From an uncultured Anaerolineales bacterium (GTDB lineage: Bacteria; Chloroflexota; Anaerolineae; Anaerolineales; UBA6663): a stretch of 64,000 nt of DNA. Made by a program: the position numbers and the translations under genes. The notes under the pieces were generated by a model. It ran no database searches and had not been told where the DNA came from. It saw only the letters and a program-made list of their open reading frames with translations. The stretch spans positions 698 to 64,697 of the forward strand of contig CAYZRP010000024.1 in assembly GCA_964480865.1 (NCBI GenBank), written 5' to 3'. Each line of letters begins with the position of its first letter. Within the stretch, counting starts at the first letter, position 1. Shown piece after piece: positions 16,975 to 61,507 of this stretch.

Positions 16975-17426
16975 AAGGCCGAGAGCATCTGCCTGATCTC
17001 GCCCAGGTGATAGGCGAGATGTGTGATCATCACCAGGCTGCCGGCGACATCGTCATCGCTCAACGTCTCGCGCGATTCAAGACGCTGCACGAGCGTGTGA
17101 TAGTTCGAGCGCAGTCGTTCGCGCAGTGTCGTCCAGGCAGCTTCGTCGACCTGGTCGATGACCCAACTCTCGGACCAGTTCGGTTGATCACGCTCGCCAT
17201 CGATTATGCGGATGACGCTCTCGAGGAACCAGGCCATGTGTCCACAATGCGCGGCAAGGGTTGCGTTGCCGGGCTTGGGCGCGCGCGAGGCTGTTTGAGC
17301 GTCGATGTCGGCGAGGATGGCCAGATAGCCTGACGATCCGTTATCCAGGATCATGCCGTGGTCATGCGGCGAAACGCCGAAGATCTCGGCAAGCAACATC
17401 AGGAGCGTGCGGCGATAGGTATCCAT
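16971..17426 (-). CDS. DinB-like (four-helix bundle) family protein
   Basis: HCGHMAWFLE...HLAYHLGEIRQM resembles the DinB_2 histidine pattern. Confidence 0.55.
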   Translation of the reverse strand: MDTYRRTLLMLLAEIFGVSPHDHGMILDNGSSGYLAILADIDAQTASRAPKPGNATLAAHCGHMAWFLESVIRIIDGERDQPNWSESWVIDQVDEAAWTTLRERLRSNYHTLVQRLESRETLSDDDVAGSLVMITHLAYHLGEIRQMLSAF

Positions 17427-17509
17427 CGGTTTTGGGCTCCTGGTTGTAGTTGACGGCGTTCGCGCCGCGAAACGCGAATGCGGCGGATTTTAAACGATCG
17501 AGTGCGAAG

Positions 17510-18148
17510 TCAGGCCGCCGGCTTGAGTCGCGCCTGGATGATATCGCCGACAACTTTCAGGCCGATGTCGCTGGCGGGGTCAGCCCAGTTCAGTTCGTTG
17601 GCGCCGACGACGACCAGCGGGGCGAGCGAGAAGCGCGCCGCCCAATCATCGTAGAGACGATTGAGTTGCTCGAGATAGCGAACGGAAATATCGCGCTCGT
17701 AGTCGCGCCCACGACGAACGACGCGGCTGAGCAGGGTCTCCACCGAAGCGCGCAGATAGACCACAAGATCCGGTGGCCGGATGATCTCGGACATGGTGCG
17801 ATAGAGGCTGTAGTAGGTGTCCCAATCGCGGCCGGTCAACTGGCCACGCTCGTGCAGGTTGCGCGCGAAGATCTCGGCGTCCTCGTACACGCTGCGATCC
17901 TGCATGGTTGGATGACCTGTGGCGCAGATCCGGTTGTGTTGCTCGAGGCGTTTGCTCAGGAAGAACACCTGCGAATTGAACGCCCAGCGCGGCATGTCGC
18001 TGTAGAAGTCGGCCAGGTAGGGGTTGGCGTCGTTGGGCTCGAACGCCGCCTGCCAATCCCAGAGTTGAGTGAGGCGGACGACCAGCGTCGACTTGCCCAC
18101 GCCGATGTTGCCGGCGACGACCACGAAGGGGGAGTTGGGAAGCGTCAT
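17510..18148 (-). CDS. Deoxynucleoside kinase
   Basis: VVVAGNIGVGKSTL, FEPNDANPYLADFY, WAFNSQVFFLSKR, DRS.YED motifs. Confidence 0.9.
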   Translation of the reverse strand: MTLPNSPFVVVAGNIGVGKSTLVVRLTQLWDWQAAFEPNDANPYLADFYSDMPRWAFNSQVFFLSKRLEQHNRICATGHPTMQDRSVYEDAEIFARNLHERGQLTGRDWDTYYSLYRTMSEIIRPPDLVVYLRASVETLLSRVVRRGRDYERDISVRYLEQLNRLYDDWAARFSLAPLVVVGANELNWADPASDIGLKVVGDIIQARLKPAA

Positions 18149-18309
18149 GGCGGTTATCAGTGGCTACGGGGTGCTCACGAACGATAGCATAGATTGGCGG
18201 CCAACTCCGATCCCGGTCACAGCCGCAACCCCCCGGAGATGCTTCCGGGAGTGCATTTGCCCGACGTGGCGCGGAGATTGATTTTACATAAATATTCATC
18301 AAACCAACC

Positions 18310-18324
18310 TTTGATAAAATCAAA
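18310..18324. promoter_or_regulatory. Palindrome TTTGAT-AAA-ATCAAA upstream of the DUF2089 operon (candidate operator)
   Basis: Read directly inside an AT-rich island. Lies 9 nt upstream of a TTGACA hexamer. Confidence 0.35.
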
Positions 18325-18332
18325 ATTGGATA

Positions 18333-18360
18333 TTGACATTTTTGAAGTGAGTCGTAGTAT
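18333..18360 (+). promoter_or_regulatory. Sigma-70-like promoter (TTGACA, 16 nt, TAGTAT) for the 18410..24072 operon
   Basis: ttgaca tttttgaagtgagtcg tagtat, about 50 nt upstream of the 18410 ATG. Confidence 0.5.
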
Positions 18361-18409
18361 AACGAAGCAAGTAGTAAGGTGATCTAAGTTCTCAGGCGGA
18401 GGTGCCCCT

Positions 18410-18814
18410 ATGCATCCAGTTCCAAGTCGGTGTCCAGTCTGTCAGGAAGCCATGACCGTGACCCGCCTGCATTGCCCGAACTGCGGAACCGGCGTCGATG
18501 GCCGCTTCTCGCTCGGTGCTTTCGACCGGCTGACGCCTGAGCAACTGGCGTTTGCCGCGGCCTTCATCAAGAACGAGGGCAAACTCAACCGGCTGGAGCG
18601 TGAACTTGATCTGTCGTACCCGACGCTGCGCTCGCGGCTGACGGAGTTGATCGAGGCGATGGGGTACGAGGTCGGGCAGGAAGAGCCTGCGGCGCCTACG
18701 CCCGCGCCGCCACCTGAGGACGATCGACGCCGGATCCTGGGCGAGTTGGCCGCCGGGCGGCTGACCGCCGACGATGCTATCAAGGCGCTGCGTGGCGGCG
18801 CTCCCAACAGTTGA
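18410..18814 (+). CDS. DUF2089-type protein (Zn-ribbon plus HTH, putative regulator)
   Basis: CPVCQEAMTVTRLHCPNCGTGVDGRF, then FIKNEGKLNRLERELDLSYPTLRSRL. Confidence 0.75.
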   Translation: MHPVPSRCPVCQEAMTVTRLHCPNCGTGVDGRFSLGAFDRLTPEQLAFAAAFIKNEGKLNRLERELDLSYPTLRSRLTELIEAMGYEVGQEEPAAPTPAPPPEDDRRRILGELAAGRLTADDAIKALRGGAPNS

Positions 18815-18838
18815 CGTTTACCAGGTAGGAGGTTCATC

Positions 18839-19861
18839 ATGAGAGATCAGCAGTCCGTTCCGGTCGGGGCCAATGCCCTGGTTCACATCAAGGTGCAGGG
18901 CGACCTGCGCCTGCAGAGCCACGAGGCGGCCGAGGTCGTCGGGTTCAGTGACGAAATCTTCACGGTCGTGCCCGAGGGCGATCATGATGTGCAGGTGGAG
19001 GCGGAAGGCGACCTTCAGTTGTTCGTTCCGGCGGATGCCCAGGTCGTTGTGGACACGGTTGGCGGTGACGCGCGCGTGCGCGACCTCAACACGGCCGTGC
19101 AGGTGGGCAACGTCGGCGGCGACCTCTCGGTCAAGCACTTGAGTTCGATCAAGGTCGGGAACGTCGGCGGCGACGTGCATGCCAAGGTGATCGCCGGCAC
19201 CTGCCTGATCGGCAACGCCGGCGGCGATATCGTCTTGAGCCTGACCTTCCAGCCCGGCAATGAGTATGCTTACCACGCCGGGGGCGACATCGTCTGCAAT
19301 GTGGCTGAAGGCTCGTCGGCGACCGTGGCCGCTGTGTGCGGTGGTGATCTGACCGCTCGGGCCCGTGGCGCCAAAGTTACCTATCAGGCCAATCGGTCGG
19401 TGGCGAACGTGACTCTTGGCGGCGGTGAGGCGGCGGTGCGCATGCAATGCGGCGGCGACATCGTCCTGCGTGACTTCGATGACGTCGGCCCGGATATCGA
19501 GTCGCTGGGCAGTTCGATCGAAGCCATCGTCGCCCGGCAGCTGAGCGGCAGCGCCGAGCAGATCACGGCCGCGCTCGAGCGCAGCGGCATCCATATCCAG
19601 CGCGCCATGGAGCAGGCCCAGCGCAAGGTCGAAGAAGCTGAGCGCAAAATGGACTCGGCCGGACGGCGCTCACGTCGCTGGGGGGTGGTTGTGCCGCCTC
19701 AGCCGGGCCGGACCCCCGAGCCACCGACTCCACCGACGCCACCCGTGGCCCATGAGCCCGTCAGCAACGACGAGCGGATGGCGATCCTGAGGCTTGTCGA
19801 GAGCGGCAAGATCTCGGCCGCCGAGGCGGCCCAGCTGCTGTCCGCCCTCGAAGGGAAGTGA
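18839..19861 (+). CDS. DUF4097/LiaX-YvlB-like beta-helical repeat protein with C-terminal SHOCT-like helix
   Basis: aggagg RBS. At least 8 GGD(I/L/V/A) repeat turns (VGGDARV, VGGDLSV, VGGDVHA, AGGDIVL, AGGDIVC, CGGDLTA, CGGDIVL). Pro-rich linker, then ERMAILRLVESGKISAAEAAQLLSALEGK. Confidence 0.65.
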   Translation: MRDQQSVPVGANALVHIKVQGDLRLQSHEAAEVVGFSDEIFTVVPEGDHDVQVEAEGDLQLFVPADAQVVVDTVGGDARVRDLNTAVQVGNVGGDLSVKHLSSIKVGNVGGDVHAKVIAGTCLIGNAGGDIVLSLTFQPGNEYAYHAGGDIVCNVAEGSSATVAAVCGGDLTARARGAKVTYQANRSVANVTLGGGEAAVRMQCGGDIVLRDFDDVGPDIESLGSSIEAIVARQLSGSAEQITAALERSGIHIQRAMEQAQRKVEEAERKMDSAGRRSRRWGVVVPPQPGRTPEPPTPPTPPVAHEPVSNDERMAILRLVESGKISAAEAAQLLSALEGK

Positions 19862-19867
19862 GCGAAC

Positions 19868-20071
19868 ATGATGCGCGGCTTTTCCATCTTTCTGGATGAC
19901 ACGGCACCGGCTGAGGCGTCGGCTCGCGGGGTCAAACCGAAGCAGGAGAAGGCGTCCACGCCGCGCGAACGAGAGCGGCTCGCCATCCTGCGCAGATTGC
20001 AGGCCGGATCGATCGATGCCAACACCGCAGCCGATCTGCTCGATCAGGTCGAAAGGACTTACGCGGCATGA
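19868..20071 (+). CDS. Small SHOCT-like helix protein (67 aa)
   Basis: ERERLAILRRLQAGSIDANTAADLLDQVE motif. Its stop overlaps the ATG of the ABC ATPase (ATGA). Confidence 0.5.
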   Translation: MMRGFSIFLDDTAPAEASARGVKPKQEKASTPRERERLAILRRLQAGSIDANTAADLLDQVERTYAA

Positions 20072-21081
20072 GGGGGAACGTCCTCGTTGAGGAATTGACT
20101 AAGACCTACATCACGCGCCAGCGCCGGGGCCTCTTCAAGTCCGAAACGAAAGAGGTCCCGGCGCTGAAAGGCGTCTCGCTCGAGATCAAGCCCGGCGAAC
20201 TGTTTGGCCTGCTCGGCCCGAACGGCGCCGGAAAGACGACGCTGATCAAATGTCTGACGACTCTGCTGTTGCCGACGACCGGCCGGGCCCTTGTCAACGG
20301 CTACGAGTTGACCAAAGAAGATAACGCGATCCGCGCTACCACCGGCTGCATGTTGATGGGCGAGCGCGGTCTGTATTGGAAGCTCACCGCGCGCGAGAAC
20401 CTCGTCTTCTTCGGCGCGCTCTATCACCTCAGCCAGGCCGATCGCCGCAAACGCGCTGACGATCTGATCGAGCAACTCGATCTGGGCGAGATCGCCGATC
20501 GCGCGCTCGAAAGCTACTCGTCAGGCCAGCGCATGAAGGTGGCCTTCGCCAAGGCGCTGATCAATGACGCGCCGCTGCTGATCCTCGACGAACCCACCAA
20601 CACGCTCGACGTGCCCTCGGCCCGCGAGTTGCGCGCCGTCGTGCGCCAGCTCAACGACCAGGGCAAGACCGTGATCTACACCACGCACATCATGTCTGAG
20701 GCTGAGACGCTCTGCGACAGGGTCGCGATCGTGGACCACGGACAGGTGCTGGCGATGGGCACGGTGCCTGAGCTCAAGGCCTCGCTCGAACGCGAGGCCG
20801 TGTTGCGCATCGAGGGCGTGATCTCGTCGCGCGCCAGCCAGGCGGTGGCCGCGCTTGGCGGCGTCACGCGCACGGCCGTGCAGGCCGTCAACGGCCATAC
20901 CGAACTGACGGTGATGTCGGCCAACGCCACGTCGCTACTGCCGCGCCTGATCGAGACGCTGACCGAGCATCGGGCCGTGATCCAGAAGATCGCGCCTGAA
21001 GAGATCACGCTCGAAGACGTGTTCATCGCGCGCACAGGCCGCACGCTGGCCGAAGACACACGCGCAGTTCGAAAAGACTGA
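20068..21081 (+). CDS. ABC transporter ATP-binding protein (ABC-2/DrrA type)
   Basis: Walker A GLLGPNGAGKTT, signature YSSGQRMKV, Walker B LLILDEPT. Confidence 0.93.
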   Translation: MRGNVLVEELTKTYITRQRRGLFKSETKEVPALKGVSLEIKPGELFGLLGPNGAGKTTLIKCLTTLLLPTTGRALVNGYELTKEDNAIRATTGCMLMGERGLYWKLTARENLVFFGALYHLSQADRRKRADDLIEQLDLGEIADRALESYSSGQRMKVAFAKALINDAPLLILDEPTNTLDVPSARELRAVVRQLNDQGKTVIYTTHIMSEAETLCDRVAIVDHGQVLAMGTVPELKASLEREAVLRIEGVISSRASQAVAALGGVTRTAVQAVNGHTELTVMSANATSLLPRLIETLTEHRAVIQKIAPEEITLEDVFIARTGRTLAEDTRAVRKD

Positions 21082-21092
21082 ACGGGAAACCC

Positions 21093-21896
21093 ATGAGTTA
21101 TCCATCCTGGCTTGAGGCCCTCCTGCGGTGTCCGCAGACCTTGGAACCGCTGACGCGCTCGGACGACGGCTATCGACGCCCAGACGGCAAGACCTACCGC
21201 GTGATCGACGGGATCCTGTCCATCGTGCACCCGGCCGAGCTCTCCGGCCAGGACGCGGAGTTCAACCAGTTCTACGATCGCCTGGCACCGCTCTACGACC
21301 TCAACGAGCGCGTGTTCGGTCGGTTGATCGCCGGCATTGACATGGCGACCGGCCGGCGCGAGATCGTGTCCCGCCTGCCCCTACAGCGCGGTTGTCGGTT
21401 GCTCGAAGTGTCGCCGGGCCCCGGGGTCTTCCAGCCGCATCTCCGAGACGCGATCGGACCAGAAGGGGAATTCGTCTCGCTGGACCTGTCACTCGGGATG
21501 TTGCGCCAGTGCCAGCATCGCAATGACCGCCTCGACGTGCAGCTGATCCATGCCAATGGCCAGCACCTGCCCTTTGAGGATGCGAGTTTCGACGCCGTAT
21601 TCCACTTTGGCGGCGTAAATCTGTTCAACGATCCTGATCGAGCTCTGGCGGAGTTCGCGCGGGTCACGCGGCCGGGCGGGCTGGTCAGCTGGGGCGATGA
21701 GGGCTTCGCGCCGAGTTATCCGAATGGTCTTCGGAAAAAGATGATGAGCAGGATCAATCCCGGCTTCACCAAGCCTCGACCCGCGTTGCCGGCTGAAGTG
21801 GAGCAAGCCCAGGTGCACGAGGTCTACGGCGGCTTAGGCTATCTCGTCGTGGCCCAGCGGATTGTGGCCCATGAAACCGTGGAGGCCCTTCCATGA
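21093..21896 (+). CDS. Trm112-like zinc-ribbon fused to class I SAM methyltransferase
   Basis: N-terminus LLRCPQTLEPL...YRVIDGILSIV (Trm112-like). LLEVSPGPG motif I. Its stop overlaps the next ATG (ATGA at 21893). Confidence 0.78.
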   Translation: MSYPSWLEALLRCPQTLEPLTRSDDGYRRPDGKTYRVIDGILSIVHPAELSGQDAEFNQFYDRLAPLYDLNERVFGRLIAGIDMATGRREIVSRLPLQRGCRLLEVSPGPGVFQPHLRDAIGPEGEFVSLDLSLGMLRQCQHRNDRLDVQLIHANGQHLPFEDASFDAVFHFGGVNLFNDPDRALAEFARVTRPGGLVSWGDEGFAPSYPNGLRKKMMSRINPGFTKPRPALPAEVEQAQVHEVYGGLGYLVVAQRIVAHETVEALP

Positions 21897-22759
21897 CCGT
21901 GCAGGCTGTCGCGCGAGCCGGCCGACCGACGTTCCGGCAGACCCTGTCGGCGGCGCTGGCCGAAACTCAGCTGCGGTTGATCAACATCACGCGCTACCCG
22001 GGCCAGCTGGCGATGGAGGCCGTGATCCCGATCGTTTTCGCGGCCATGCCCATGTTTCTGGGGCGGGCCGCCGGCGGCGATCAGGCTGCCGCGAACTTCC
22101 AGGCCAACACCGGCACCTCGAACTACGTGGCCTACATGCTGATCGGCAGCGCGGTCTTCACGATTGTGTCGGGCGCGTTCTGGCATGTCGCCTACTGGAT
22201 CCGCTTCGAGCAGGAGACCGGGACGCTCGAGGCCGTGTATCTCACCCCGACGTCTACGATCACGTTAGTGAGCGGCGTGGCGCTCTATAGCCTGATCCGC
22301 GGGCTTGTGACGGCTTTGATCGCCTATGTGCTTGGCTGTCTCATCTTTCAGGTCAACCCGATCTCGGGCAACCTGGGGCTGGCTCTGCTCTTCGTCTTGT
22401 TTGGTTCTATTCCGCTCTATGGCATGTCCCTGGTCTTTGGGGCCGTCGTGCTCCGGGTGAAAGAGTCGAGCGCGATCGTGAACCTGATGCAGTGGGTGGT
22501 CAGTTTTCTGATGGGCATGTACTTCCCGGTGGCGACATTGCCGCCGCTGCTGCGCGCCGTCGCCTTGCTCTTCCCACCGACCTGGATGACCAACGGCGTC
22601 CGCTCGGCCCTGCTCGGCATGGGCTACTTCTTCGGCACCTGGTACTTCGACCTGGCCGTGTTGTGGGCCTTCATGCTCTTTGCACCACTCTTTGGCTTCT
22701 GGGTCTTCAATCGCACCGAGCGCAGCGTGCAGCGTAACGAGGGAGTGGGGCAGTTTTGA
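21893..22759 (+). CDS. ABC-2 type transporter permease
   Basis: Six predicted TM segments, ABC-2 topology, translationally coupled to the upstream gene. Confidence 0.8.
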   Translation: MTVQAVARAGRPTFRQTLSAALAETQLRLINITRYPGQLAMEAVIPIVFAAMPMFLGRAAGGDQAAANFQANTGTSNYVAYMLIGSAVFTIVSGAFWHVAYWIRFEQETGTLEAVYLTPTSTITLVSGVALYSLIRGLVTALIAYVLGCLIFQVNPISGNLGLALLFVLFGSIPLYGMSLVFGAVVLRVKESSAIVNLMQWVVSFLMGMYFPVATLPPLLRAVALLFPPTWMTNGVRSALLGMGYFFGTWYFDLAVLWAFMLFAPLFGFWVFNRTERSVQRNEGVGQF

Positions 22760-22763
22760 ATTC

Positions 22764-22841
22764 GTGGAGCGTAGAGCGAAGAGCGAGGAGCGAAAGGCGA
22801 GTGTCTATTCAACCTTCGTCATTCGTCCTTCGTCATTCGTC
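22764..22841. repeat. Composite heptamer-repeat element (GNNGAGC units, spacer, TTCGTCN units)
   Basis: gtggagc gtagagc gaagagc gaggagc gaaaggc gagtgtctattcaacc ttcgtca ttcgtcc ttcgtca ttcgtc. The two arms are not complementary to each other. Confidence 0.85.
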
Positions 22842-22853
22842 TGAAACAGAGTG

Positions 22854-23699
22854 ATGTCGATGCAAAACCGTCTCACGGGCCCATCGGCCTTCTTCAGCGT
22901 TTTGAGCGCGATGGCGTGGAAAGAACTGACCATCATGCTGAGGTACCCGGTCGAGTTTGCGGCCTCATTCGGTCAGGTGTTTCTGATCGTGGCGTCGGTC
23001 ACGCTGGCCGGCCTGATGTTCACGCCGCGCAACGGCACGAACAACGACTCGTCGACGGCAGGCGTGGTCGTCTACGGCTTCTTCATCTTCATGTTCCTGT
23101 CGGATACGCTCTGGACCATCGGCTACAATGTGCGCCGCGACCAGAAGCAGGGCACGCTCGAACAGCTGTATCTGAGCCCCGCCTCGAAGTTCGCCAATCT
23201 GCTCTCACGCATCGCCGTCTCGCTGGTGTGGACCGGGTTGTTGTGCATCATGTCGGCCGGGTTGATGAGACTGTTGATCGGGGAGTTGCCGGTCTATAAC
23301 GTGCCGCTCGGGTTGCTGGTGCTGGTGTTGACGCTCTCGGGGACGTTTGGCTTTGGTTTTGCGTTCGCGGCGTTGACGCTGCGGATCAAAGAGTCGGCCC
23401 AGACGCTGATCAATGTGATCCAGTTCACGTTCATGGTGGTCTGCGCGCCGTTCTTCACGTTCAAGGTGCTGCCCGATTGGCTCGTCGCGATCACGCGCTT
23501 CATCCCGCTGTCACACGGCGTCGATGCGTTTCGCTCGTTGATGATGGGCCTGCCGCCGGGTTATCCCGAACTGGCGCCCATCGAAGTCGAGATCGCTGTC
23601 GTGGCGGTGTTCGGCCTGCTGATGCCGGCGATCGGGTACTGGTTGTATCGTCGCGAAGAGAATATCGCCCGGCGCGCCGGGTCGCTATCGGAGTATTGA
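22854..23699 (+). CDS. ABC-2 type transporter permease (second subunit)
   Basis: Paralogous topology to 21893..22759. The ATG at 22854 (GTG at 22851 is also possible). Confidence 0.75.
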   Translation: MSMQNRLTGPSAFFSVLSAMAWKELTIMLRYPVEFAASFGQVFLIVASVTLAGLMFTPRNGTNNDSSTAGVVVYGFFIFMFLSDTLWTIGYNVRRDQKQGTLEQLYLSPASKFANLLSRIAVSLVWTGLLCIMSAGLMRLLIGELPVYNVPLGLLVLVLTLSGTFGFGFAFAALTLRIKESAQTLINVIQFTFMVVCAPFFTFKVLPDWLVAITRFIPLSHGVDAFRSLMMGLPPGYPELAPIEVEIAVVAVFGLLMPAIGYWLYRREENIARRAGSLSEY

Positions 23700-23703
23700 G
23701 CCC

Positions 23704-24072
23704 ATGACGACTGCGGAGGAACGACTGACCGTCCTCAAGATGCTCGAGGCCGGGACGATCTCATCAGACGAGGCCCGGCAGTTGCTGGCCGCGCTCGCCG
23801 GCAACCGTGGCGCCCGAACAGCGTCCGACCGCGAGACACGCTCGTTGCGCGTGCGCTTCCGCGACGCCGCCACAGGCCGCGAGAAATACCTGGCGACAGT
23901 GCCGCTGCCGATTGTGGACACCGCGCTGCAATGGGGCGGCGGGATCGCGGCGCGGATCCCGAACGAGCAACTCCAGGGTGTCCTGGCCGCCGTGCGTGTG
24001 GGTCAGCCCAGCAAGATCGTCGATTTCTTCGATGCAGAGACGGGCGATCGCATCGAGATCTTCATCGAGTAG
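23704..24072 (+). CDS. SHOCT-like helix N-terminal domain protein (122 aa)
   Basis: TAEERLTVLKMLEAGTISSDEARQLLAALAG at the N-terminus. C-terminal domain of unknown family. Confidence 0.55.
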   Translation: MTTAEERLTVLKMLEAGTISSDEARQLLAALAGNRGARTASDRETRSLRVRFRDAATGREKYLATVPLPIVDTALQWGGGIAARIPNEQLQGVLAAVRVGQPSKIVDFFDAETGDRIEIFIE

Positions 24073-24097
24073 CTCGACTTAGAGTAGCTCGACTTAA
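24068..24097. repeat. Perfect 15-bp tandem duplication gagtagctcgactta x2, including the stop codon of 23704..24072
   Basis: Read directly. Confidence 0.9.
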
Positions 24098-24101
24098 ATG
24101 A

Positions 24102-24134
24102 AAGAGGCCGGCGAACACTCGCCGGCCTCTTTCG
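24102..24134. terminator. Bidirectional hairpin terminator between convergent genes
   Basis: aaagaggccggcg-aacact-cgccggcctcttt, with A/T runs on both sides. Confidence 0.75.
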
Positions 24135-24152
24135 TTTACCGAAGAGATACCG

Positions 24153-24869
24153 TTACTTGATCGTCACCGACAGGGTGAAGGTGGCTGTGTCCACGCCCGG
24201 GACCACGTTGATGATGTAGTCCTGATCGGCGGGCAATGTGCCTGACCAGCTGCTCACGCCCGCGCCGCCCGCGCGGACCAGCGGCTGGCCGTCGCTCAGG
24301 CCGTAGACCGTCAGGGCCATCGCGTCCTTCGACGTGATCGTCACCGACATGGTCTGGTTCTTGGCCGCGCGCAGGATGTACGTGTTCGTGCGCCGGGTCG
24401 CGATCGAGCCGTCGACGCTGCCGCTCGTGGCGCCGCGCGCGAACGAGATGCGCCGCGGGATGGTGACGTTCATCGAGAACGTCGCGGCGTTGTTGTTGGC
24501 CGATACCTTGATGACGTAGTCCTGATTGGCGGGCAGGGTGCCGATCCAATTTGCGCCGTCTGCGCTGCGCGAGAACACGACAGGCTCACCCTTGCCCGAG
24601 CCGACGACCTGCACGCCCACGCCGTTGGTCGACGACGAGACGTTGATCATCAGCGTCTGGCCCTTGAGCGCGCGGAGGACGTACTGCCTGGTCTCGTTCG
24701 CCGCGATCGTGCTCGAGACCACGGCGTTGGTGGCGCCCCGCGCGAACGAGATCCGGGTCGGCGTGGTATCGGCGGCCATGGCGGCCGGGGCGCCGTTGAA
24801 TGCGAGTGGAAGTGCAACGGCGGCGGCCAGCGCCCAATGTGCGGCGCGTGTCAGAAGTGTCCGAAACAT
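24153..24869 (-). CDS. Secreted protein with two tandem about 100-aa repeat domains
   Basis: Start MFRTLL at 24869 after aaaggag. Signal peptide ...APAAMA. Two copies of RISFARGAT..V.(G/S)(S/T)IA...T..Y(I/V)LRA.K.QT(M/L)...(I/V).S. Confidence 0.6.
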   Translation of the reverse strand: MFRTLLTRAAHWALAAAVALPLAFNGAPAAMAADTTPTRISFARGATNAVVSSTIAANETRQYVLRALKGQTLMINVSSSTNGVGVQVVGSGKGEPVVFSRSADGANWIGTLPANQDYVIKVSANNNAATFSMNVTIPRRISFARGATSGSVDGSIATRRTNTYILRAAKNQTMSVTITSKDAMALTVYGLSDGQPLVRAGGAGVSSWSGTLPADQDYIINVVPGVDTATFTLSVTIK

Positions 24870-25114
24870 ACTTTCTCCTTTTGACGGCTCTCTGAAGCCG
24901 TCTGTGTGTAACAACGCTCAGACGGCCCGACCACCGCGTAGGTTCCGTTGCTGAGGTATTTCGGTAGGGCCCGCTCCATAGCAGCCGATTCCTCTGACAG
25001 TGCAGAAGAGGGTGAGGCGTGAGATCGATCCGCGAAATAGGCGCAATCTGCGGCAAGATCACACTGTCTGCTCTCACCCTTCGTGGTATCCTCGCCTGAG
25101 CGTTGGTGCCTGGT

Positions 25115-25951
25115 ATGAAAAATCCACTCTCTCGCTATCTCAAAATCCACGTCGCGTTGCCGCAGCAGCATGGCGCCTGGGTGATGTGGGCTGGCCCGTT
25201 GGTGTTCGGCATCGCCGTGGCCAGGGCCTTCACACCCGCGCTGGCCTGGCTTGTGCTCGCGTCGCTCGGCGCCTTCCTGGCGCTGCAGCCCCTCACGATT
25301 CTGGTGAAGGTCTGGGCCGGTCGACGCCCACGCGAAGAAGGCGCCCCGGCCATGCTCTGGCTGAGCCTGTACGGCGCTCTCACGCTGGCGGGCGTGCTGG
25401 GATTGTTCCAGCAGGGCCATGTCTGGACGCTGGCGTTGGGCGTCCTGGCGGCGCCGGTTCTGGTCTGGCAGATGTGGCTCGTTCGCCGGCGTGAGGAGCG
25501 CGGCCAGATGGGTGTCGAACTGGTCGGCGCTGGCGTGCTGGCGCTGAATGCCCTGGCCGGCTATGGCGTGGCCTCAGGCATCGGGTTTGACCTGCGTGGG
25601 TTCGTGTTGTTCGCGTTGAGCTGGTTGCAATCAGCGACAGGGATCGTCTACATCTACCTGTGCCTCGAGTACCGGCGCATGAGGGCCGCGCCGCCGCGCG
25701 ACGAACGGATGCAACTGGCCGGGCGAGCGCTGCTCTACGCCGGAGCCGACGTCGTCATCGTGCTGCTCCTGGGTGCATTGGGCGTCGCGCCGCTCGGCGC
25801 CGTCATCGCCTATGTGTTCCTCGCCGGCGAAGTCGTCTACGGTGGCGTGTGGAAGCCGCCCGTCGGCGCGCGGCCGGCCGCCATCGGCATCCGCCAGACC
25901 GTCGTCACCGTGATCTTCTTTGTCCTGCTGCTGATCGCGTATCTGTTCTGA
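25115..25951 (+). CDS. YwiC-like membrane protein
   Basis: LPQQHGAWVMWAGPLVFGIAVA start and about 8 TM helices. Assigned from memory of the YwiC-like family. Confidence 0.55.
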   Translation: MKNPLSRYLKIHVALPQQHGAWVMWAGPLVFGIAVARAFTPALAWLVLASLGAFLALQPLTILVKVWAGRRPREEGAPAMLWLSLYGALTLAGVLGLFQQGHVWTLALGVLAAPVLVWQMWLVRRREERGQMGVELVGAGVLALNALAGYGVASGIGFDLRGFVLFALSWLQSATGIVYIYLCLEYRRMRAAPPRDERMQLAGRALLYAGADVVIVLLLGALGVAPLGAVIAYVFLAGEVVYGGVWKPPVGARPAAIGIRQTVVTVIFFVLLLIAYLF

Positions 25952-26058
25952 CTCTTCCATTCGCCTGACAACCTTCGGACAAACACAGACGTCTTGCCGC
26001 AAGGGCTTGCCATCCGCCAGACCCGGATCGAAGATGGATGTGCTTGCGGGGGAAGTCC

Positions 26059-28302
26059 ATGCTCATCAAGAACCTGTGGCGTCGACGGACACGGACCCTG
26101 TTGACCGCCCTGGGCGTCGCGATCGGCGTAGCTGCCATCGTGACGCTTTCGGCGTTCAGCCAGGGCCTGGCCGACGGTTTTCAGGGGGTGATGACCGTCA
26201 GCGAGGCCGACCTCACGGTCGGTCAGAAGGACGCGCTGATGCTGCTGTACAGCTCGGTCGATGCCGATATCGGCGCTGAGCTCGAGCAGATCCGCGGCGT
26301 GAAGGCCGTGGCCGGCACCGTCGTCGGCTTCGTGCAGATGACCGACTCGCCGTACTTCGTCTTGATGGGCGAGGATCCGCGCGGCTTCGGTATGACGCGC
26401 TATCGCCTCCTCGAGGGCGGGCCGATCGCGGGCCGCTATCAGATGTGGCTCGGCCACATCGCGGCGCGCAACTTCGGCAAAGCCGTCGGAGACACCTTCC
26501 ACCTGGCGGGCTCACGCTACAGGATCGTCGGCATCTATGAAACCGGCGTCAGCCTCGAGGACGGTGGCGGTGTGATCAGCCTGCGCGACGCACAGAGCGC
26601 ATTCGACAAGCGCGACAAGGTCACCTACTTCTCGCTCCAGGTCGACGACGTCGCCGACATCTCGGACGTGCGGGCCGCCATCGAGGAACGCTGGAGCGAC
26701 CTGGCCGTGGCTCGCTCCGGCGAGGCGACGCGCTCCGACGAGTTCCTCGACCTGTATCGCTCGATGGGCCTCTTCATCGGCCTGTTTACGGCCGTCGTCG
26801 GCGGGCTCGGGATGATGAACACCACCCTCATGAGCGTGCTCGAGCGGACGCGCGAGATCGGCGTATTGCGCGCGCTCGGTTGGAGTCGCTGGCGGGTCGT
26901 CCGCATGATCCTGGGCGAATCGATCCTGCTGGCCGGTCTGGGCGGCATTCTGGGTATCGGGCTCGGGCTTGGCCTGATGCGACTGCTGCAGGCAGTCCCG
27001 GCCGTCGAGCCAATGCTCGCCAGCCGGGCCACGCCCGAAATCCTGGGTCAGGCGTTCGTCCTGGCGTTGTTGTTGGGTATGATCGGCAGCCTGTATCCGG
27101 CCTGGCGCGCGGCCCAACTCACGCCCATCGAGGCGATGCGCTACGAGGGCGGTGTCGGGTCGACGATGAACCCATGGGCCAGTTGGTGGAGCCGGAGAGC
27201 CATAACGCGCGGCCCTTTGCGGGCCCTGCTGCGCCGGCCGGGGCGCACGGCCCTGACCGTGGCGGGCATCGGCCTGGGCGTGGGCTTCATCGTCTCGATG
27301 ATGAGCCTGGTCGACGGCATGCTGTCGAGCTTCGGCGCCCTCACGAGCGCCGGGCAGGCGGACCTGATCGCCGAGCAGGCCGGGGCGTCTGACCTCTCGC
27401 TCTCGGAAATCGACGAACGCGTCGCCGTGCGACTGCGGAGCCGACCCGAGGTCAAGAGCGTGTCGCGGGTCCTGCTGACCTTCCCGGCCGTCGGCGACAT
27501 GCCCTTCTTCTTCATCTTCGGCCTGGATCCGCAGGAGCCCTACGTGCAGCGTTTCCGCTTTCAGGAAGGTCGACGGCCGCTGCGCTCGGGCGAGATCGCG
27601 CTCGGCCGCTTCGGCGCCGAGAACCTCGAGAAGGGCCTGGGCGATACCCTGCGTCTGAGCGGCACAACGTACGCCATCGTCGGGATCTACGAGAACGGCT
27701 CGACCTTCGAAGACGCGGGCGGGCTGTTGCTGTTGAAGGATGCCCAACGCCTCGGCAACAAGCCGCGCAAGGTCACCCTGCTGGCGATCCAGCTGGAAGA
27801 CCCGGCGCACGGCGACGAGGTGGTCCCGGCGCTCAGGGCCACCTTCCCCGAGATCGCCATCGAACGAGCCGAAGGCTTCCTCGAGCGCACGCAAGACATC
27901 CAGACGACGCGTCTGGTCTTCAACACCATCATCGGCGTGACGATGCTGGTGGGCGGCGTGGTGATGATGAACGCGATGTTGATGAGTGTCTTTGAGCGCA
28001 CCCAGGAGATCGGCGTCCTGCGTGCGCTCGGCTGGCGTCGCCGCCGTGTGATCGGCATGGTGCTGGCCGAGTCGATCGCGCTGGCCGTGGTCAGCTCGGC
28101 GGCCGGGATCCTGATCGGCATCGGGCTCAACGGCACGATCGCGTTCTTCCCGGAGTACAGCCTATTGCTGAAGCCGTTGTACTCGTCGACGATGTTCGCG
28201 CAGGTGCTGGGGCTGGCGGTCGTGTTGGGGAGCGTCGGCGGGCTCTATCCGGCCTGGCGCGCCGCGGGCCTGCAACCGATCGAGGCCCTGCGCTATGAGT
28301 GA
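26059..28302 (+). CDS. Fused double FtsX/MacB-type ABC permease
   Basis: Two halves, each starting LWRRRTRTLLTALGVAIGVAAIV / LLRRPGRTALTVAGIGLGVGFIV. Each has an extracytoplasmic domain followed by an FtsX 3-TM block (ERT.EIGVLRALGW.R). Confidence 0.85.
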   Translation: MLIKNLWRRRTRTLLTALGVAIGVAAIVTLSAFSQGLADGFQGVMTVSEADLTVGQKDALMLLYSSVDADIGAELEQIRGVKAVAGTVVGFVQMTDSPYFVLMGEDPRGFGMTRYRLLEGGPIAGRYQMWLGHIAARNFGKAVGDTFHLAGSRYRIVGIYETGVSLEDGGGVISLRDAQSAFDKRDKVTYFSLQVDDVADISDVRAAIEERWSDLAVARSGEATRSDEFLDLYRSMGLFIGLFTAVVGGLGMMNTTLMSVLERTREIGVLRALGWSRWRVVRMILGESILLAGLGGILGIGLGLGLMRLLQAVPAVEPMLASRATPEILGQAFVLALLLGMIGSLYPAWRAAQLTPIEAMRYEGGVGSTMNPWASWWSRRAITRGPLRALLRRPGRTALTVAGIGLGVGFIVSMMSLVDGMLSSFGALTSAGQADLIAEQAGASDLSLSEIDERVAVRLRSRPEVKSVSRVLLTFPAVGDMPFFFIFGLDPQEPYVQRFRFQEGRRPLRSGEIALGRFGAENLEKGLGDTLRLSGTTYAIVGIYENGSTFEDAGGLLLLKDAQRLGNKPRKVTLLAIQLEDPAHGDEVVPALRATFPEIAIERAEGFLERTQDIQTTRLVFNTIIGVTMLVGGVVMMNAMLMSVFERTQEIGVLRALGWRRRRVIGMVLAESIALAVVSSAAGILIGIGLNGTIAFFPEYSLLLKPLYSSTMFAQVLGLAVVLGSVGGLYPAWRAAGLQPIEALRYE

Positions 28303-28311
28303 GGTGAGGCG

Positions 28312-29136
28312 ATGACGACTCAACCTGTGGTCGAGACCCGTGACCTGATCAAGTGCTATGGTGACCCGAATGCCCAGGGCATTCGCGCGCTCGACGGCGT
28401 CACCCTGGGCATCCCACGCGGCCAGTTCGTGGCCCTGATCGGGCCGAGTGGCGCCGGGAAGAGCACGTTGCTGCACATGCTCGGCGCGTTGGATCGGCCC
28501 ACCCGTGGCGAGGTGATCATCGATGGGCAGTTGCTCAGTCGGGTGCGTGACCTTGACAGGTTCCGCAGCCGCACGATCGGCTTCGTGTTCCAGATGCATA
28601 ACCTCATCCCGACGCTGACCGCGCTCGAGAACGTCGAGGTGCCGATGGCCGAGACGGGGGTGTCGGGCCGGCGCAAGCGCGAGCGCGCCCGCGATCTGCT
28701 CAAGATGGTCGGCCTCGAGGCGCGCGGCAACCACCTGCCGAACATGATGTCGGGCGGCGAGCGTCAGCGTGTGGCGATCGCGCGCTCGCTCGCCAACCAG
28801 CCGGCTATCCTGCTGGCCGACGAGCCGACCGGAAACCTCGACACCCGGACGACCGACGAGATCATGGATCTACTCGCCATGCTCAACCGCGAGCAGGGCA
28901 TGACCCTGATCCTTGTCACGCACAACCCGCAGGTGGCTGGCGTCGCCGAGCGCGTGCTGACGATTCGTGACGGCAAGATCGACAGTGACATCACCTTCAG
29001 CAGCCCGTACGAGAAGGACCTGATCGACCTCAAGCACTCCCAGCTGGGACGGGCCATCATCGAGGGGCGCGACGACCTGCCGCCTGAGCTTGGCGCGTCG
29101 ACCGGGGCTTTGCGGGCCCTGCTTCAGCAGGTGTGA
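28312..29136 (+). CDS. ABC transporter ATP-binding protein (MacB/LolD type) with about 50-aa C-terminal extension
   Basis: GPSGAGKSTLL, MSGGERQRVAIAR, LLADEPTGNLD. Confidence 0.93.
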   Translation: MTTQPVVETRDLIKCYGDPNAQGIRALDGVTLGIPRGQFVALIGPSGAGKSTLLHMLGALDRPTRGEVIIDGQLLSRVRDLDRFRSRTIGFVFQMHNLIPTLTALENVEVPMAETGVSGRRKRERARDLLKMVGLEARGNHLPNMMSGGERQRVAIARSLANQPAILLADEPTGNLDTRTTDEIMDLLAMLNREQGMTLILVTHNPQVAGVAERVLTIRDGKIDSDITFSSPYEKDLIDLKHSQLGRAIIEGRDDLPPELGASTGALRALLQQV

Positions 29137-33943: not shown

Positions 33944-34010
33944 GACGAACGACGAAGGACGAATGACGAAGGTTGAACGGCCATTCAAGCTTCGTCATTC
34001 GTCCTTCGTC
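33944..34010. repeat. GACGAAN-heptamer hairpin element
   Basis: gacgaac gacgaag gacgaat gacgaag gttgaacggccattcaagc ttcgtca ttcgtcc ttcgtc. Lies between co-directional genes. Confidence 0.9.
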
Positions 34011-37522: not shown

Positions 37523-37580
37523 GACGAACGACGAAGGACGAAGGTTGTCTCGCACAACCTTCGTCCTTCGTCGTTCGTCA
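37523..37580. repeat. GACGAAN-heptamer hairpin element (loop GGTTGT-CTCGC-ACAACC)
   Basis: gacgaac gacgaag gacgaag gttgtctcgcacaacc ttcgtcc ttcgtcg ttcgtc. The 43-nt core is identical to 61446..61488. Confidence 0.95.
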
Positions 37581-38168: not shown

Positions 38169-38226
38169 GACGAAAGACGAAGGTTGTGCTGACGACAACC
38201 TTCGTCTTCATCCTTCGTCATTCGTC
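38169..38226. repeat. GACGAAN-heptamer hairpin element
   Basis: gacgaaa gacgaag gttgtgctgacgacaacc ttcgtct tcatcc ttcgtca ttcgtc. Confidence 0.9.
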
Positions 38227-42272: not shown

Positions 42273-42344
42273 GACGAATGGCGAAAGACGAATGACGAAG
42301 GTTGACAACCTGCCAGGCGAACTGTCGCTCCGGGCGACGACAGG
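42273..42344. repeat. Half GACGAAN element (left arm plus apex) followed by an unrelated hairpin
   Basis: gacgaat ggcgaaa gacgaat gacgaag gttgacaacc, then gaactgtcgc-tccgg-gcgacgacag. Confidence 0.75.
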
Positions 42345-53718: not shown

Positions 53719-53791
53719 GACGACGAACGACGAATGACGAAAGCTGCGTGAGACAACCTTCGTGTTCGTCATTCGTCGTTCGTCATTCGTC
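53719..53791. repeat. GACGAAN-heptamer hairpin element (inverted-loop variant)
   Basis: cagac gacgaac gacgaat gacgaaa gctgcgtgagacaacc ttcgtgt tcgtca ttcgtcg ttcgtca ttcgtc. Lies 15 nt upstream of the thiolase start. Confidence 0.9.
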
Positions 53792-61445: not shown

Positions 61446-61507
61446 GACGAAGGACGAAGGTTGTCTCGCACAACCTTCGTCCTTCGTCTTTCGTCCTTCG
61501 TCGTTTT
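61446..61507. repeat. GACGAAN-heptamer hairpin element followed by TTTTT
   Basis: gacgaag gacgaag gttgtctcgcacaacc ttcgtcc ttcgtct ttcgtcc ttcgtcg ttttt. Abuts the prmA stop. Confidence 0.95.

Follow-up and report, generated by a model that had tools for sequence, protein, structure and literature searches.

An eight-gene operon with one promoter-like site and one strong terminator

The window analysed here is a 64,000-nucleotide stretch of DNA from an uncultured Anaerolineales bacterium (assembly GCA_964480865.1, contig CAYZRP010000024.1). Between positions 18410 and 24072 it holds eight densely packed open reading frames (ORFs) on the + strand, g1 to g8, which encode a DUF2089-type regulator, a Toastrack protein, an ATP-binding cassette (ABC) exporter of the ABC-2 type, a methyltransferase and two small SHOCT-like proteins. 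An earlier note, made from the letters of this DNA, had described eight same-strand genes with tiny or overlapping gaps, and the ORF coordinates and gap sizes confirm this layout. From g1 to g8, the intergenic gaps measure 24, 6, -4, 11, -4, 91 and 4 nt, the negative values being ATGA stop/start overlaps at 20068 (g3/g4) and 21893 (g5/g6). The operon comprises the following features:

18278..18324 (+): upstream A/T-rich control region, candidate g1 operator, with TTGAT at 18278-18282, TACATAAA at 18285-18292, ATCAAA boxes and a palindrome
18333..18370 (+): sigma-70-like promoter, with TTGACA at 18333-18338, a 16-nt spacer and TAGTAT at 18355-18360, then the conserved block ATAACGAAGCAA
18410..18814 (+): g1, 134 aa, predicted transcription factor with a zinc ribbon, a DUF2089 helix-turn-helix (HTH) and a putative SHOCT-like C-terminal tail
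18839..19861 (+): g2, 340 aa, soluble, with a Toastrack-type beta-helix, a long helix, a proline-rich linker and a SHOCT-like hairpin
19868..20071 (+): g3, 67 aa, small soluble protein that starts with the invariant MMRGxSIxLDD and ends in a SHOCT-like part; its stop overlaps the g4 start (ATGA)
20068..21081 (+): g4, 337 aa, DrrA/ABCA-like ABC ATPase that ends in a regulatory domain
21093..21896 (+): g5, 267 aa, class I S-adenosylmethionine (SAM) methyltransferase (Methyltransf_11) with an N-terminal extension of ~60 aa
21893..22759 (+): g6, 288 aa, ABC-2 permease with about 6 transmembrane segments (PF01061 46.2 bits, PF12698 50.5 bits); its start overlaps the g5 stop
22760..22850 (no strand): dispersed hairpin element resembling repetitive extragenic palindromic (REP) elements, between permease genes g6 and g7, built of GACGAAN / NTTCGTC heptamers
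22851..23699 (+): g7, 282 aa, second ABC-2 permease with about 6 transmembrane segments (PF12698 63.7 bits, PF01061 44.8 bits)
23704..24072 (+): g8, 122 aa, with a SHOCT-like hairpin (residues 4-32) and a beta-beta-alpha-alpha-alpha-beta-beta X domain (residues 47-121)
24095..24138 (no strand): two-way hairpin terminator, common to the operon and the convergent gene 24153-24914(-)

The GC content just 5' of g1 is 0.49-0.54, compared with about 0.60-0.70 (mostly 0.62-0.67) inside the genes. The promoter-like site in this region, TTGACA-16-TAGTAT at 18333-18360, matches 10 of 12 consensus positions; the promoter island of the earlier note is therefore present as sequence, but the number of promoter-like sites in a consensus scan of the region (2 found, 1.3 expected by chance) stays near chance. 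A second promoter-like match, at 18811-18840 (9 of 12 positions), lies within the chance expectation and was rejected. At the other end, the proposed strong hairpin terminator was borne out: its arms of 20 nt are 95% complementary, and its free energy of -40.6 kcal/mol corresponds to z = -7.9 relative to shuffled sequences. The eight closely coupled genes are bounded by a single promoter-like site and a single strong terminator. A scan of positions 17000-26000 against Rfam at E <= 1 found no riboswitch or leader RNA, just two sub-threshold small RNA matches on the terminator hairpin. PADLOC gave no defence-system match for the operon proteins, only generic ATPase and methyltransferase domain similarity.

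We compared 160 related loci (handles L001 onwards), among them genome loci anchored on g2 and metagenome loci anchored on g7. The g2 anchor profile, built from 15 sequences, yielded 80 genome loci, all from Chloroflexota and mostly from Anaerolineales metagenome-assembled genomes. A sister genome (GCA_044226485.1, locus L087) carries all eight genes in identical order with the same flanking genes, and metagenome contigs carry exact g2 copies in the same gene order.

The regulator g1 and its candidate operator

The first gene had been read as a zinc-ribbon/HTH protein of the DUF2089 type, and profile searches agree: the HTH of g1 scores 69.9 bits against PF09862 (cut-off 33.4) and the zinc ribbon 50.5 bits against PF22747 (cut-off 27.6), with C8, C11, C22 and C25 kept in the family alignment. 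The C-terminal tail reaches 15.4 bits against PF22746, the SHOCT-like family, which is under the 27-bit cut-off, and its motif R..IL..L..G.I...EA...L is conserved in 14 homologues. The start codon ATG 18410, which lies 7 nt 3' of a GGAGG ribosome-binding site (18398-18402), restores the complete four-cysteine zinc ribbon. Gene callers place the g1 start at Met15 (120 or 118 aa; 18410-18452, L001-L006), losing the first CxxC of the ribbon. Sequence searches of the PDB with g1 and g2 profiles returned no significant match.

The control region 5' of the promoter contains two ATCAAA boxes, at 18298-18303 and 18319-18324, which are 21 bp apart, and the palindrome TTTGATAAAATCAAA at 18310-18324, which occurs only once in the window. 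A footprint alignment of six genomes of the window clade shows that TACATAAA, two AATCAA boxes 21 bp apart, TATTGAC and GTAnTATAACGAAGCAAC are all kept. The palindrome that had been proposed to precede the promoter is thus present and unique, but in the clade it is the boxes, and not both of its arms, that are conserved; nor is any single perfect palindrome conserved 5' of g1 across all loci. In the 38 loci with an AT-rich island 5' of g1, the most enriched 6-mer is TATTGA/TCAATA (50 observed versus 8.5 expected, z = 12), with further enrichment of ATCAAT and TATCAA. The motif density 5' of g1 is 12.8 per kb, 3.2x the 4.0 per kb found in 155 control islands, which are other AT-rich islands from the same loci (p = 4.5e-7). 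From this conservation we infer that the ATCAA-type boxes just 5' of the -35 element are the best candidate operator for g1.

The segment GTAnTATAACGAAGCAAC (18353-18370) covers the -10 element together with the probable start of the transcript. It is near-invariant in the window, L087, L007, L008 and L089, loci in which g2 identity is about 47-84%. Such near-invariance suggests a constrained start region or leader.

A soluble Toastrack protein and a set of SHOCT-like proteins

The AlphaFold2 model of g2 has a mean predicted local distance difference test score (pLDDT) of 86.8 and consists of a beta-helix (residues 1-212, pLDDT above 92), a helix (220-274), a disordered stretch and a two-helix hairpin (310-339). 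Its top Foldseek matches in the PDB are 4QRK (E = 1.4e-7, probability 1.0) and 4OPW, the exemplar structures that define Toastrack, followed by 3LYC and 3PET; the TM-scores are just 0.2-0.45 because the number of rungs differs. The only Pfam match of g2 itself is PF22746 (39.4 bits, residues 311-340). PF13349 (DUF4097) gives no direct match at E <= 0.1, and the general Pfam scan, without a separate examination of this region, gave no match to PF17115 (Toastrack_N, an intertwined 7-stranded N-terminal region). The homologues of g2 belong to a single family whose members begin with an array of GGD repeats, continue with a charged helix and a proline-rich linker, and end in a SHOCT-like part. In this family, PF13349 is matched by 13 of 33 aligned members (best E = 3.6e-13) and PF22746 by all 33; precomputed annotations agree. 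Judged by its family and predicted fold, g2 is a soluble Toastrack beta-helix protein. The earlier description of g2 as DUF4097-like therefore holds for the family and the fold but not for a direct profile match of g2. As to the description as LiaX/YvlB-like, g2 is no orthologue of these proteins: the domain order is reversed, with Toastrack first and the SHOCT-like hairpin last, and the flanking families sampled include no Lia or Psp genes.

Two further products of the operon, g3 and g8, had been called SHOCT-like helix proteins. PF22746 scores are above the 27-bit cut-off for g8 (32.3 bits), as for g2, but below it for g3 (21.7 bits, E = 1.5e-4), as for g1. All four proteins nonetheless appear to carry the same SHOCT-like two-helix motif, with two-helix hairpins modelled in g2 (310-339) and g8 (4-32). 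Hydropathy profiles reveal no transmembrane segment in g1-g5 or g8, and no signal peptide was found in the non-permease proteins. The small protein g3 is kept in six genomes of the window clade at 58-100% identity and is absent from more distant loci.

The label of 122-aa helix protein does not fit g8, which combines the SHOCT-like hairpin with an alpha/beta X domain of no known fold: its structure model (mean pLDDT 80) found no match in a fold search of the PDB (best E = 0.19). The g8 family has at least 5911 members, counted as cluster representatives and mostly from Anaerolineales; this count comes from a profile of locus-derived homologues, and a search with the single sequence gave six close relatives only. 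The related SHOCT-2TM-X proteins of ~200 aa (for example L047:11068-11670 and L011:11107-11751) begin with a SHOCT-like hairpin, followed by two transmembrane helices and then an X domain with the C-terminal sequence ...GERVQVYIG. Aligned with hhalign, the two families match with a probability of 99.65% (E = 4e-25), and on this profile evidence g8 is the soluble paralogue of the membrane protein SHOCT-2TM-X. The window clade is without SHOCT-2TM-X and has g3 instead, g3 being confined to this clade.

One group of loci has an extra ORF of 116-146 aa between g1 and g2, weakly similar to g8 (19-53 bits) and absent from the window (L009, L010, L012, L013, L035, L039, L040, L049, L055, L058, L085, L086, L091, L093 and L094). 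The one member tested had no Pfam match.

The ABC-2 exporter and the embedded methyltransferase

The ATPase g4 scores 110.9 bits against ABC_tran and 26.7 bits against DrrA1-3_C, slightly under the cut-off of 27.4. Its best NCBIfam model is drrA (TIGR01188), at 265 bits below the cut-off of 312, and the lantibiotic-protection ABC model (TIGR03740) is matched at 141.9 bits, below the cut-off of 309.75. The nearest solved relatives of g4 are the nucleotide-binding domains of ABCA4, ABCA3, ABCA7 and ABCA1, plus 4YER. Both permeases exceed the PF01061 cut-off of 26.9 bits (46.2 for g6, 44.8 for g7), and each has about 6 transmembrane segments by hydropathy; the start of g7 may be GTG 22851, ATG 22854 or ATG 22860, and a PDB sequence search with g7 found nothing significant. 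Together, g4, g6 and g7 form an ABC-2 (type V) transporter, as had been proposed from the ATPase and the two permeases.

The methyltransferase g5 scores 70.9 bits against Methyltransf_11 (cut-off 21.2) and reaches no NCBIfam equivalog; its relatives in the PDB are small-molecule or lipid methyltransferases, such as 3BUS and 8YS9. A Trm112-like SAM methyltransferase had been suggested, of which the methyltransferase stands while the Trm112-like N-terminus is without profile support: residues 1-62 match neither Trm112 (PF03966) nor any other Pfam or PDB sequence even at E = 10, the resemblance being one of loose motifs. A search of representative sequences with g5 gave 27 matches at E <= 1e-30. 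Among all loci examined, those of the window's own species (L001-L004) and L087 alone have a methyltransferase inside the ABC trio. Its embedding is thus limited to this genus, and we take g5 to be a recent, genus-specific addition. A g5 relative, 35% identical, lies 12 nt 3' of g8 in L065. The proposal that the operon exports a methylated product has gene adjacency as its sole basis.

A conserved core surrounds a variable cargo slot

The genes g1, g2 and g8 occur in that order in 70 of the 80 g2-anchored genome loci (window included), while what lies between g2 and g8 varies:

SHOCT-2TM-X, ~200 aa: 55 of 70 loci
MFS transporter: 15 of 70 loci, or 23 counting same-strand genes <= 400 nt from the core
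double GNAT: 14 of 70 loci
ABC-2 trio: 7 of 70 loci
methyltransferase: of the 70 loci, the window only

The conserved unit across Anaerolineae is therefore g1, g2, a variable cargo and g8. The gene order proved to be conserved in relatives, with an identical arrangement in L087, but it is not that of a fixed eight-gene system, since the cargo is interchangeable. A same-strand transporter is found inside the core or <= 400 nt away in 31 of 70 loci. The double-GNAT acetyltransferase, a protein of about 340 aa, is encoded directly 3' of the Toastrack gene in its 14 loci (for example L009:3944-4972 and L012:11136-12203). In most metagenome loci with an ABC trio, it precedes the ATPase gene, near the slot of the window's methyltransferase.

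The content of this slot bears on whether the operon is an antibiotic or bacteriocin resistance cassette, in which a DrrAB/LanFEG-like efflux pump and a drug-modifying enzyme (the methyltransferase here, GNAT in relatives) would be induced through DUF2089 on sensing an envelope-active compound. GNAT, methyltransferase and MFS cargo in one slot are typical resistance functions, the layout of one ATPase and two permeases fits, the closest curated models for g4 are drrA and, further off, lantibiotic-protection ABC, and DUF2089 proteins occur in leaderless-bacteriocin loci that also hold ABC transporters (PMC7332713). However, the g4 scores fall well under both curated cut-offs (265 against 312; 142 against 310), the flanks in the window and in L087 contain no biosynthetic or bacteriocin genes, and the vertical inheritance and strong conservation described below are unusual for accessory resistance pumps. 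We consider a resistance cassette rather unlikely.

A reciprocal test, anchored on permease g7 in metagenomes, shows how closely the transporter is tied to the core. The g8 gene is present in 24 of 36 loci with >= 1.5 kb downstream, and g2 directly precedes the ATPase gene in 13 of 18 loci with >= 2.6 kb upstream, with two further loci having the core immediately upstream; where the flanks are long enough, about 70% of the permease-anchored loci show the ABC trio next to the core. The usual order in these loci is g1-(small SHOCT-like protein)-g2-GNAT-g4-g6-g7-(SHOCT-2TM-X)-g8. Across loci, identity to the window falls as follows:

g2: from 84% to 26%
g1: from 97% to 45%
g4: from 98% to 64%
g7: from 96% to 57%

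The identities of the ABC and core proteins fall together across loci, and therefore the transporter and the core appear to have been vertically co-inherited. These sequence comparisons indicate that the link between them is old and that the transporter is under much stronger constraint than the core. The linkage of regulator, Toastrack protein and ABC-2 exporter that the earlier note had proposed thus holds over long evolutionary distances. In L009, g4 is 83% identical where g2 is 33% identical, which could reflect an essential endogenous substrate.

Old linkage also speaks to the explanation that core, ABC transporter and methyltransferase are independent and functionally unconnected genes that merely share a transcript. 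The genus-specific methyltransferase, the clade-specific g3, the highly variable cargo of the slot and a mobile repeat element inserted within the operon would all fit such fortuitous co-transcription. Against it, the ABC trio remains next to the core and the two diverge together, down from 84% to 26% g2 identity, the genes are joined by stop/start overlaps and very short gaps, and the g2-g8 slot has been reused for membrane-transport genes in many lineages. We regard this explanation as very improbable.

The strong constraint on the transporter raises a different alternative, in which the ABC-2 trio is a housekeeping exporter of a conserved endogenous envelope lipid or glycolipid, or a flippase for it, with g2, g3 and g8 as cytoplasmic structural or assembly partners and g1 as a mere autoregulator. 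This would account for g4 and g7 being 64-98% and 57-96% identical in loci where g2 is 26-84% identical; further points in its favour are the position of the trio between g2 and g8 in most trio-bearing loci, the overlap of the g3 stop with the g4 start, the ABCA lipid transporters whose nucleotide-binding domains are the nearest solved relatives of the ATPase, and the weak similarity of g5 to the phospholipid N-methyltransferase 8YS9. Yet 63 of 70 core loci are without the trio between g2 and g8, having other cargo or none, and 53 of 70 are without a g4-like ABC ATPase within 3.5 kb on the same strand. Some orthologous ABC trios (such as L126, L161 and L165) have no core nearby, and the contexts of Toastrack and DUF2089 elsewhere are regulatory. 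We consider a housekeeping exporter with the core as accessory rather unlikely.

Sigma/anti-sigma and Psp/Lia genes were looked for among the conserved flanking families sampled around core loci, and none was found. The families sampled, namely LexA, CorA, ribosomal proteins/NusG, TetR/HlyD/ABC (in one clade), LysM-M23 and an HtrA-like protease, are housekeeping or unrelated. In the clade concerned (L028, L032, L042, L061, L075, L078, L081 and L083), genes for TetR, an HlyD-type adaptor, two ABC ATPases and a permease, which together make up a different efflux set, lie directly 5' of g1 on the same strand.

Relation to known Toastrack and DUF2089 systems

The building blocks of the operon have been described computationally. 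Ravi et al. (2024, mSystems; PMC11237479) defined Toastrack, split DUF2089 into a zinc ribbon, an HTH and a SHOCT-like part, and reported an operonic DUF2089-Toastrack link as well as a gene pair of DUF2089 followed by 'SHOCT-like+X' (Bacillus megaterium ADE70705.1). The same study recorded fusions of Toastrack with SHOCT-like domains, as well as transport operons that contain Toastrack. It proposed lia-like signalling for DUF2089-Toastrack contexts, and predicted Toastrack to be an intracellular scaffold and SHOCT-like to be an inner-leaflet tether. The analogy with envelope stress circuits made in the earlier note is one that PMC11237479 draws for the same contexts.

Our operon shares with these contexts the regulator architecture of zinc ribbon and DUF2089 HTH with a putative SHOCT-like tail, the Toastrack partner and a SHOCT-like+X gene. 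It differs from their main four-gene context (sigma factor, zf-HC2 anti-sigma receptor, membrane-anchored Toastrack and DUF2089) in that sigma factor, anti-sigma receptor and membrane-anchored Toastrack genes were not found in the window flanks or in the sampled families. Here, the Toastrack protein is instead soluble with a C-terminal SHOCT-like hairpin, and an ABC-2 trio, an MFS transporter or a GNAT lies between g2 and the SHOCT-X protein. The operon is therefore a Chloroflexota version of the computationally described Toastrack/DUF2089 cassette and not a new kind of system. What is new is the cargo slot, the soluble/membrane pair of SHOCT-X paralogues, the candidate operator and the exporter that appears to be co-inherited. 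The combination had at first not been recognized as a described system; this is too strong for the building blocks and the DUF2089-Toastrack link, but a literature search, which was not exhaustive, found no description of the present cassette arrangement.

Like LiaX of Enterococcus and YvlB/LiaG of Bacillus subtilis, g2 combines a Toastrack beta-helix with helical or SHOCT-like modules, and a role in membrane stress is proposed for all of them. YvlB, which binds PspA and LiaH in two-hybrid assays (PMC9239133), differs in having its SHOCT-like part at the N-terminus, whereas that of g2 is C-terminal. Unlike in the Lia and Psp systems, no LiaFSR, PspA, PspC or LiaI gene was found near the core, g2 has no direct PF13349 match, and the regulator is a one-component zinc-ribbon HTH protein and not a two-component system. 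Operons of Toastrack, GntR-HTH and ABC genes (Ravi et al. 2024) similarly encode a regulator, a Toastrack sensor and an ABC transporter together. The present operon departs from them by its DUF2089 regulator in place of GntR and by its several SHOCT-like proteins.

Two classes of transporter systems offer further comparison. In the Bce-type systems of Firmicutes, sensing is coupled to the transporter, the ABC transporter being both the output of the stress circuit and a partner in it, an idea that also underlies the reading proposed below. The operon has DUF2089 and not BceRS, no histidine kinase, and an ABC-2 type V transporter with two permease genes and not an FtsX-type BceB. With DrrAB and LanFEG it shares one ATPase with a DrrA-type C-terminal domain and ABC-2 permeases of ~6 transmembrane segments, the two distinct permease genes being the layout of LanFEG. 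However, its scores are under the subfamily cut-offs, no antibiotic biosynthesis cluster is nearby, and the transporter is strongly conserved and sits inside a regulatory cassette.

A proposed membrane-proximal signalling cassette

We propose, at roughly even odds (a probability of about 0.5), that the operon is a self-regulated, membrane-proximal stress-signalling cassette with an ABC-2 exporter co-expressed as its cargo. In such a cassette, g1 would bind the ATCAA boxes and regulate its own operon. The activity of g1 would depend on whether it is held, together with g2, g3 and g8, at the transporter or on the inner membrane face. The SHOCT-like modules that these proteins have in common, along with both broad faces of the Toastrack helix, would mediate this association. 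A perturbation of the membrane, or a change in the working state of the transporter, would shift this association and thereby alter expression of the exporter, which might remove or flip a membrane-embedded compound. The methyltransferase may act on the same compound or on a lipid.

Several observations weigh against this proposal. There is no experiment on record for DUF2089, SHOCT-like or Toastrack-SHOCT proteins of this type, and in the one published study that tested a SHOCT domain, self-association was not supported (PMC3581485). The core has no adjacent transporter in about 30 of 70 loci, and therefore the exporter is not intrinsic to core function. Conservation is far stronger in the ABC proteins than in the core, a pattern that suits housekeeping export no less than it suits an inducible stress effector. 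The window clade is without the membrane-anchored SHOCT-2TM-X, so there is no evident route by which the soluble proteins would reach the membrane. On the DNA side, promoter-like sites barely exceed the number expected by chance, and the TTTGAT arm of the palindrome TTTGATAAAATCAAA is not conserved across the six clade genomes, while the boxes are.

A more specific version of the signalling cassette, which we put forward as a speculation with the odds clearly against it, would treat the SHOCT-like hairpins as a common docking module. Present in four operon proteins and in up to six in relatives, they would tether g1 and the Toastrack scaffold to the inner membrane face or to the ABC-2 exporter, so that transcription would report the activity of the exporter or the state of the membrane with no kinase involved. 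If true, SHOCT-like docking would be a new type of transporter-coupled sensing that is widespread in Anaerolineae.

Toastrack, DUF2089 and SHOCT-like proteins are very common, and almost none has an experimentally known function. The locus and its relatives present a clean, conserved anatomy for them, comprising a regulator with a candidate operator, a soluble Toastrack scaffold, a soluble/membrane pair of SHOCT-X paralogues and a slot for transporters and group-transfer enzymes. The proposal of a sub-membrane signalling complex for these modules thereby becomes directly testable. The comparison also highlights a strongly conserved ABC-2 exporter in the Anaerolineae, which are abundant in wastewater and sediments and have a didermic or atypical envelope.

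A dispersed repeat in the g6-g7 gap and neighbouring genes

The 91-nt gap between the permease genes, which the earlier note had attributed to a repeat element, is indeed filled by one. Its architecture is (GACGAAN)n, a loop and (NTTCGTC)n, and the window contains 15 matches at 7 places where 0.01 are expected (22760-22850, 33944-34010, 37523-37579, 38207-38226, 42273-42299, 53722-53791 and 61476-61502). Short-read metagenome contigs of the same species end within the g6-g7 copy, and in the sister genome L087 this copy is absent and g6 and g7 abut; for these two reasons, the copy is a recent insertion and lies outside the system proper. We also considered the gap as a terminator or attenuator and rejected this: the predicted fold of -31.5 kcal/mol is ordinary for its composition (z = -1.45) and has no T-run, the sequence being a dispersed repeat instead.

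The genes flanking the operon encode a deoxynucleoside kinase, a DinB-family protein, a secreted protein, a YwiC-like protein and a MacB-type transporter. Downstream, the convergent gene 24153-24914(-) encodes the secreted protein, which has two similar halves, and is followed by the gene of the YwiC-like membrane protein at 25103-25951(+). Further downstream lie a MacB/FtsX-type ABC permease and its ATPase, at 26038-28302(+) and 28312-29136(+). The sister genome L087 has an identical set of downstream neighbours.

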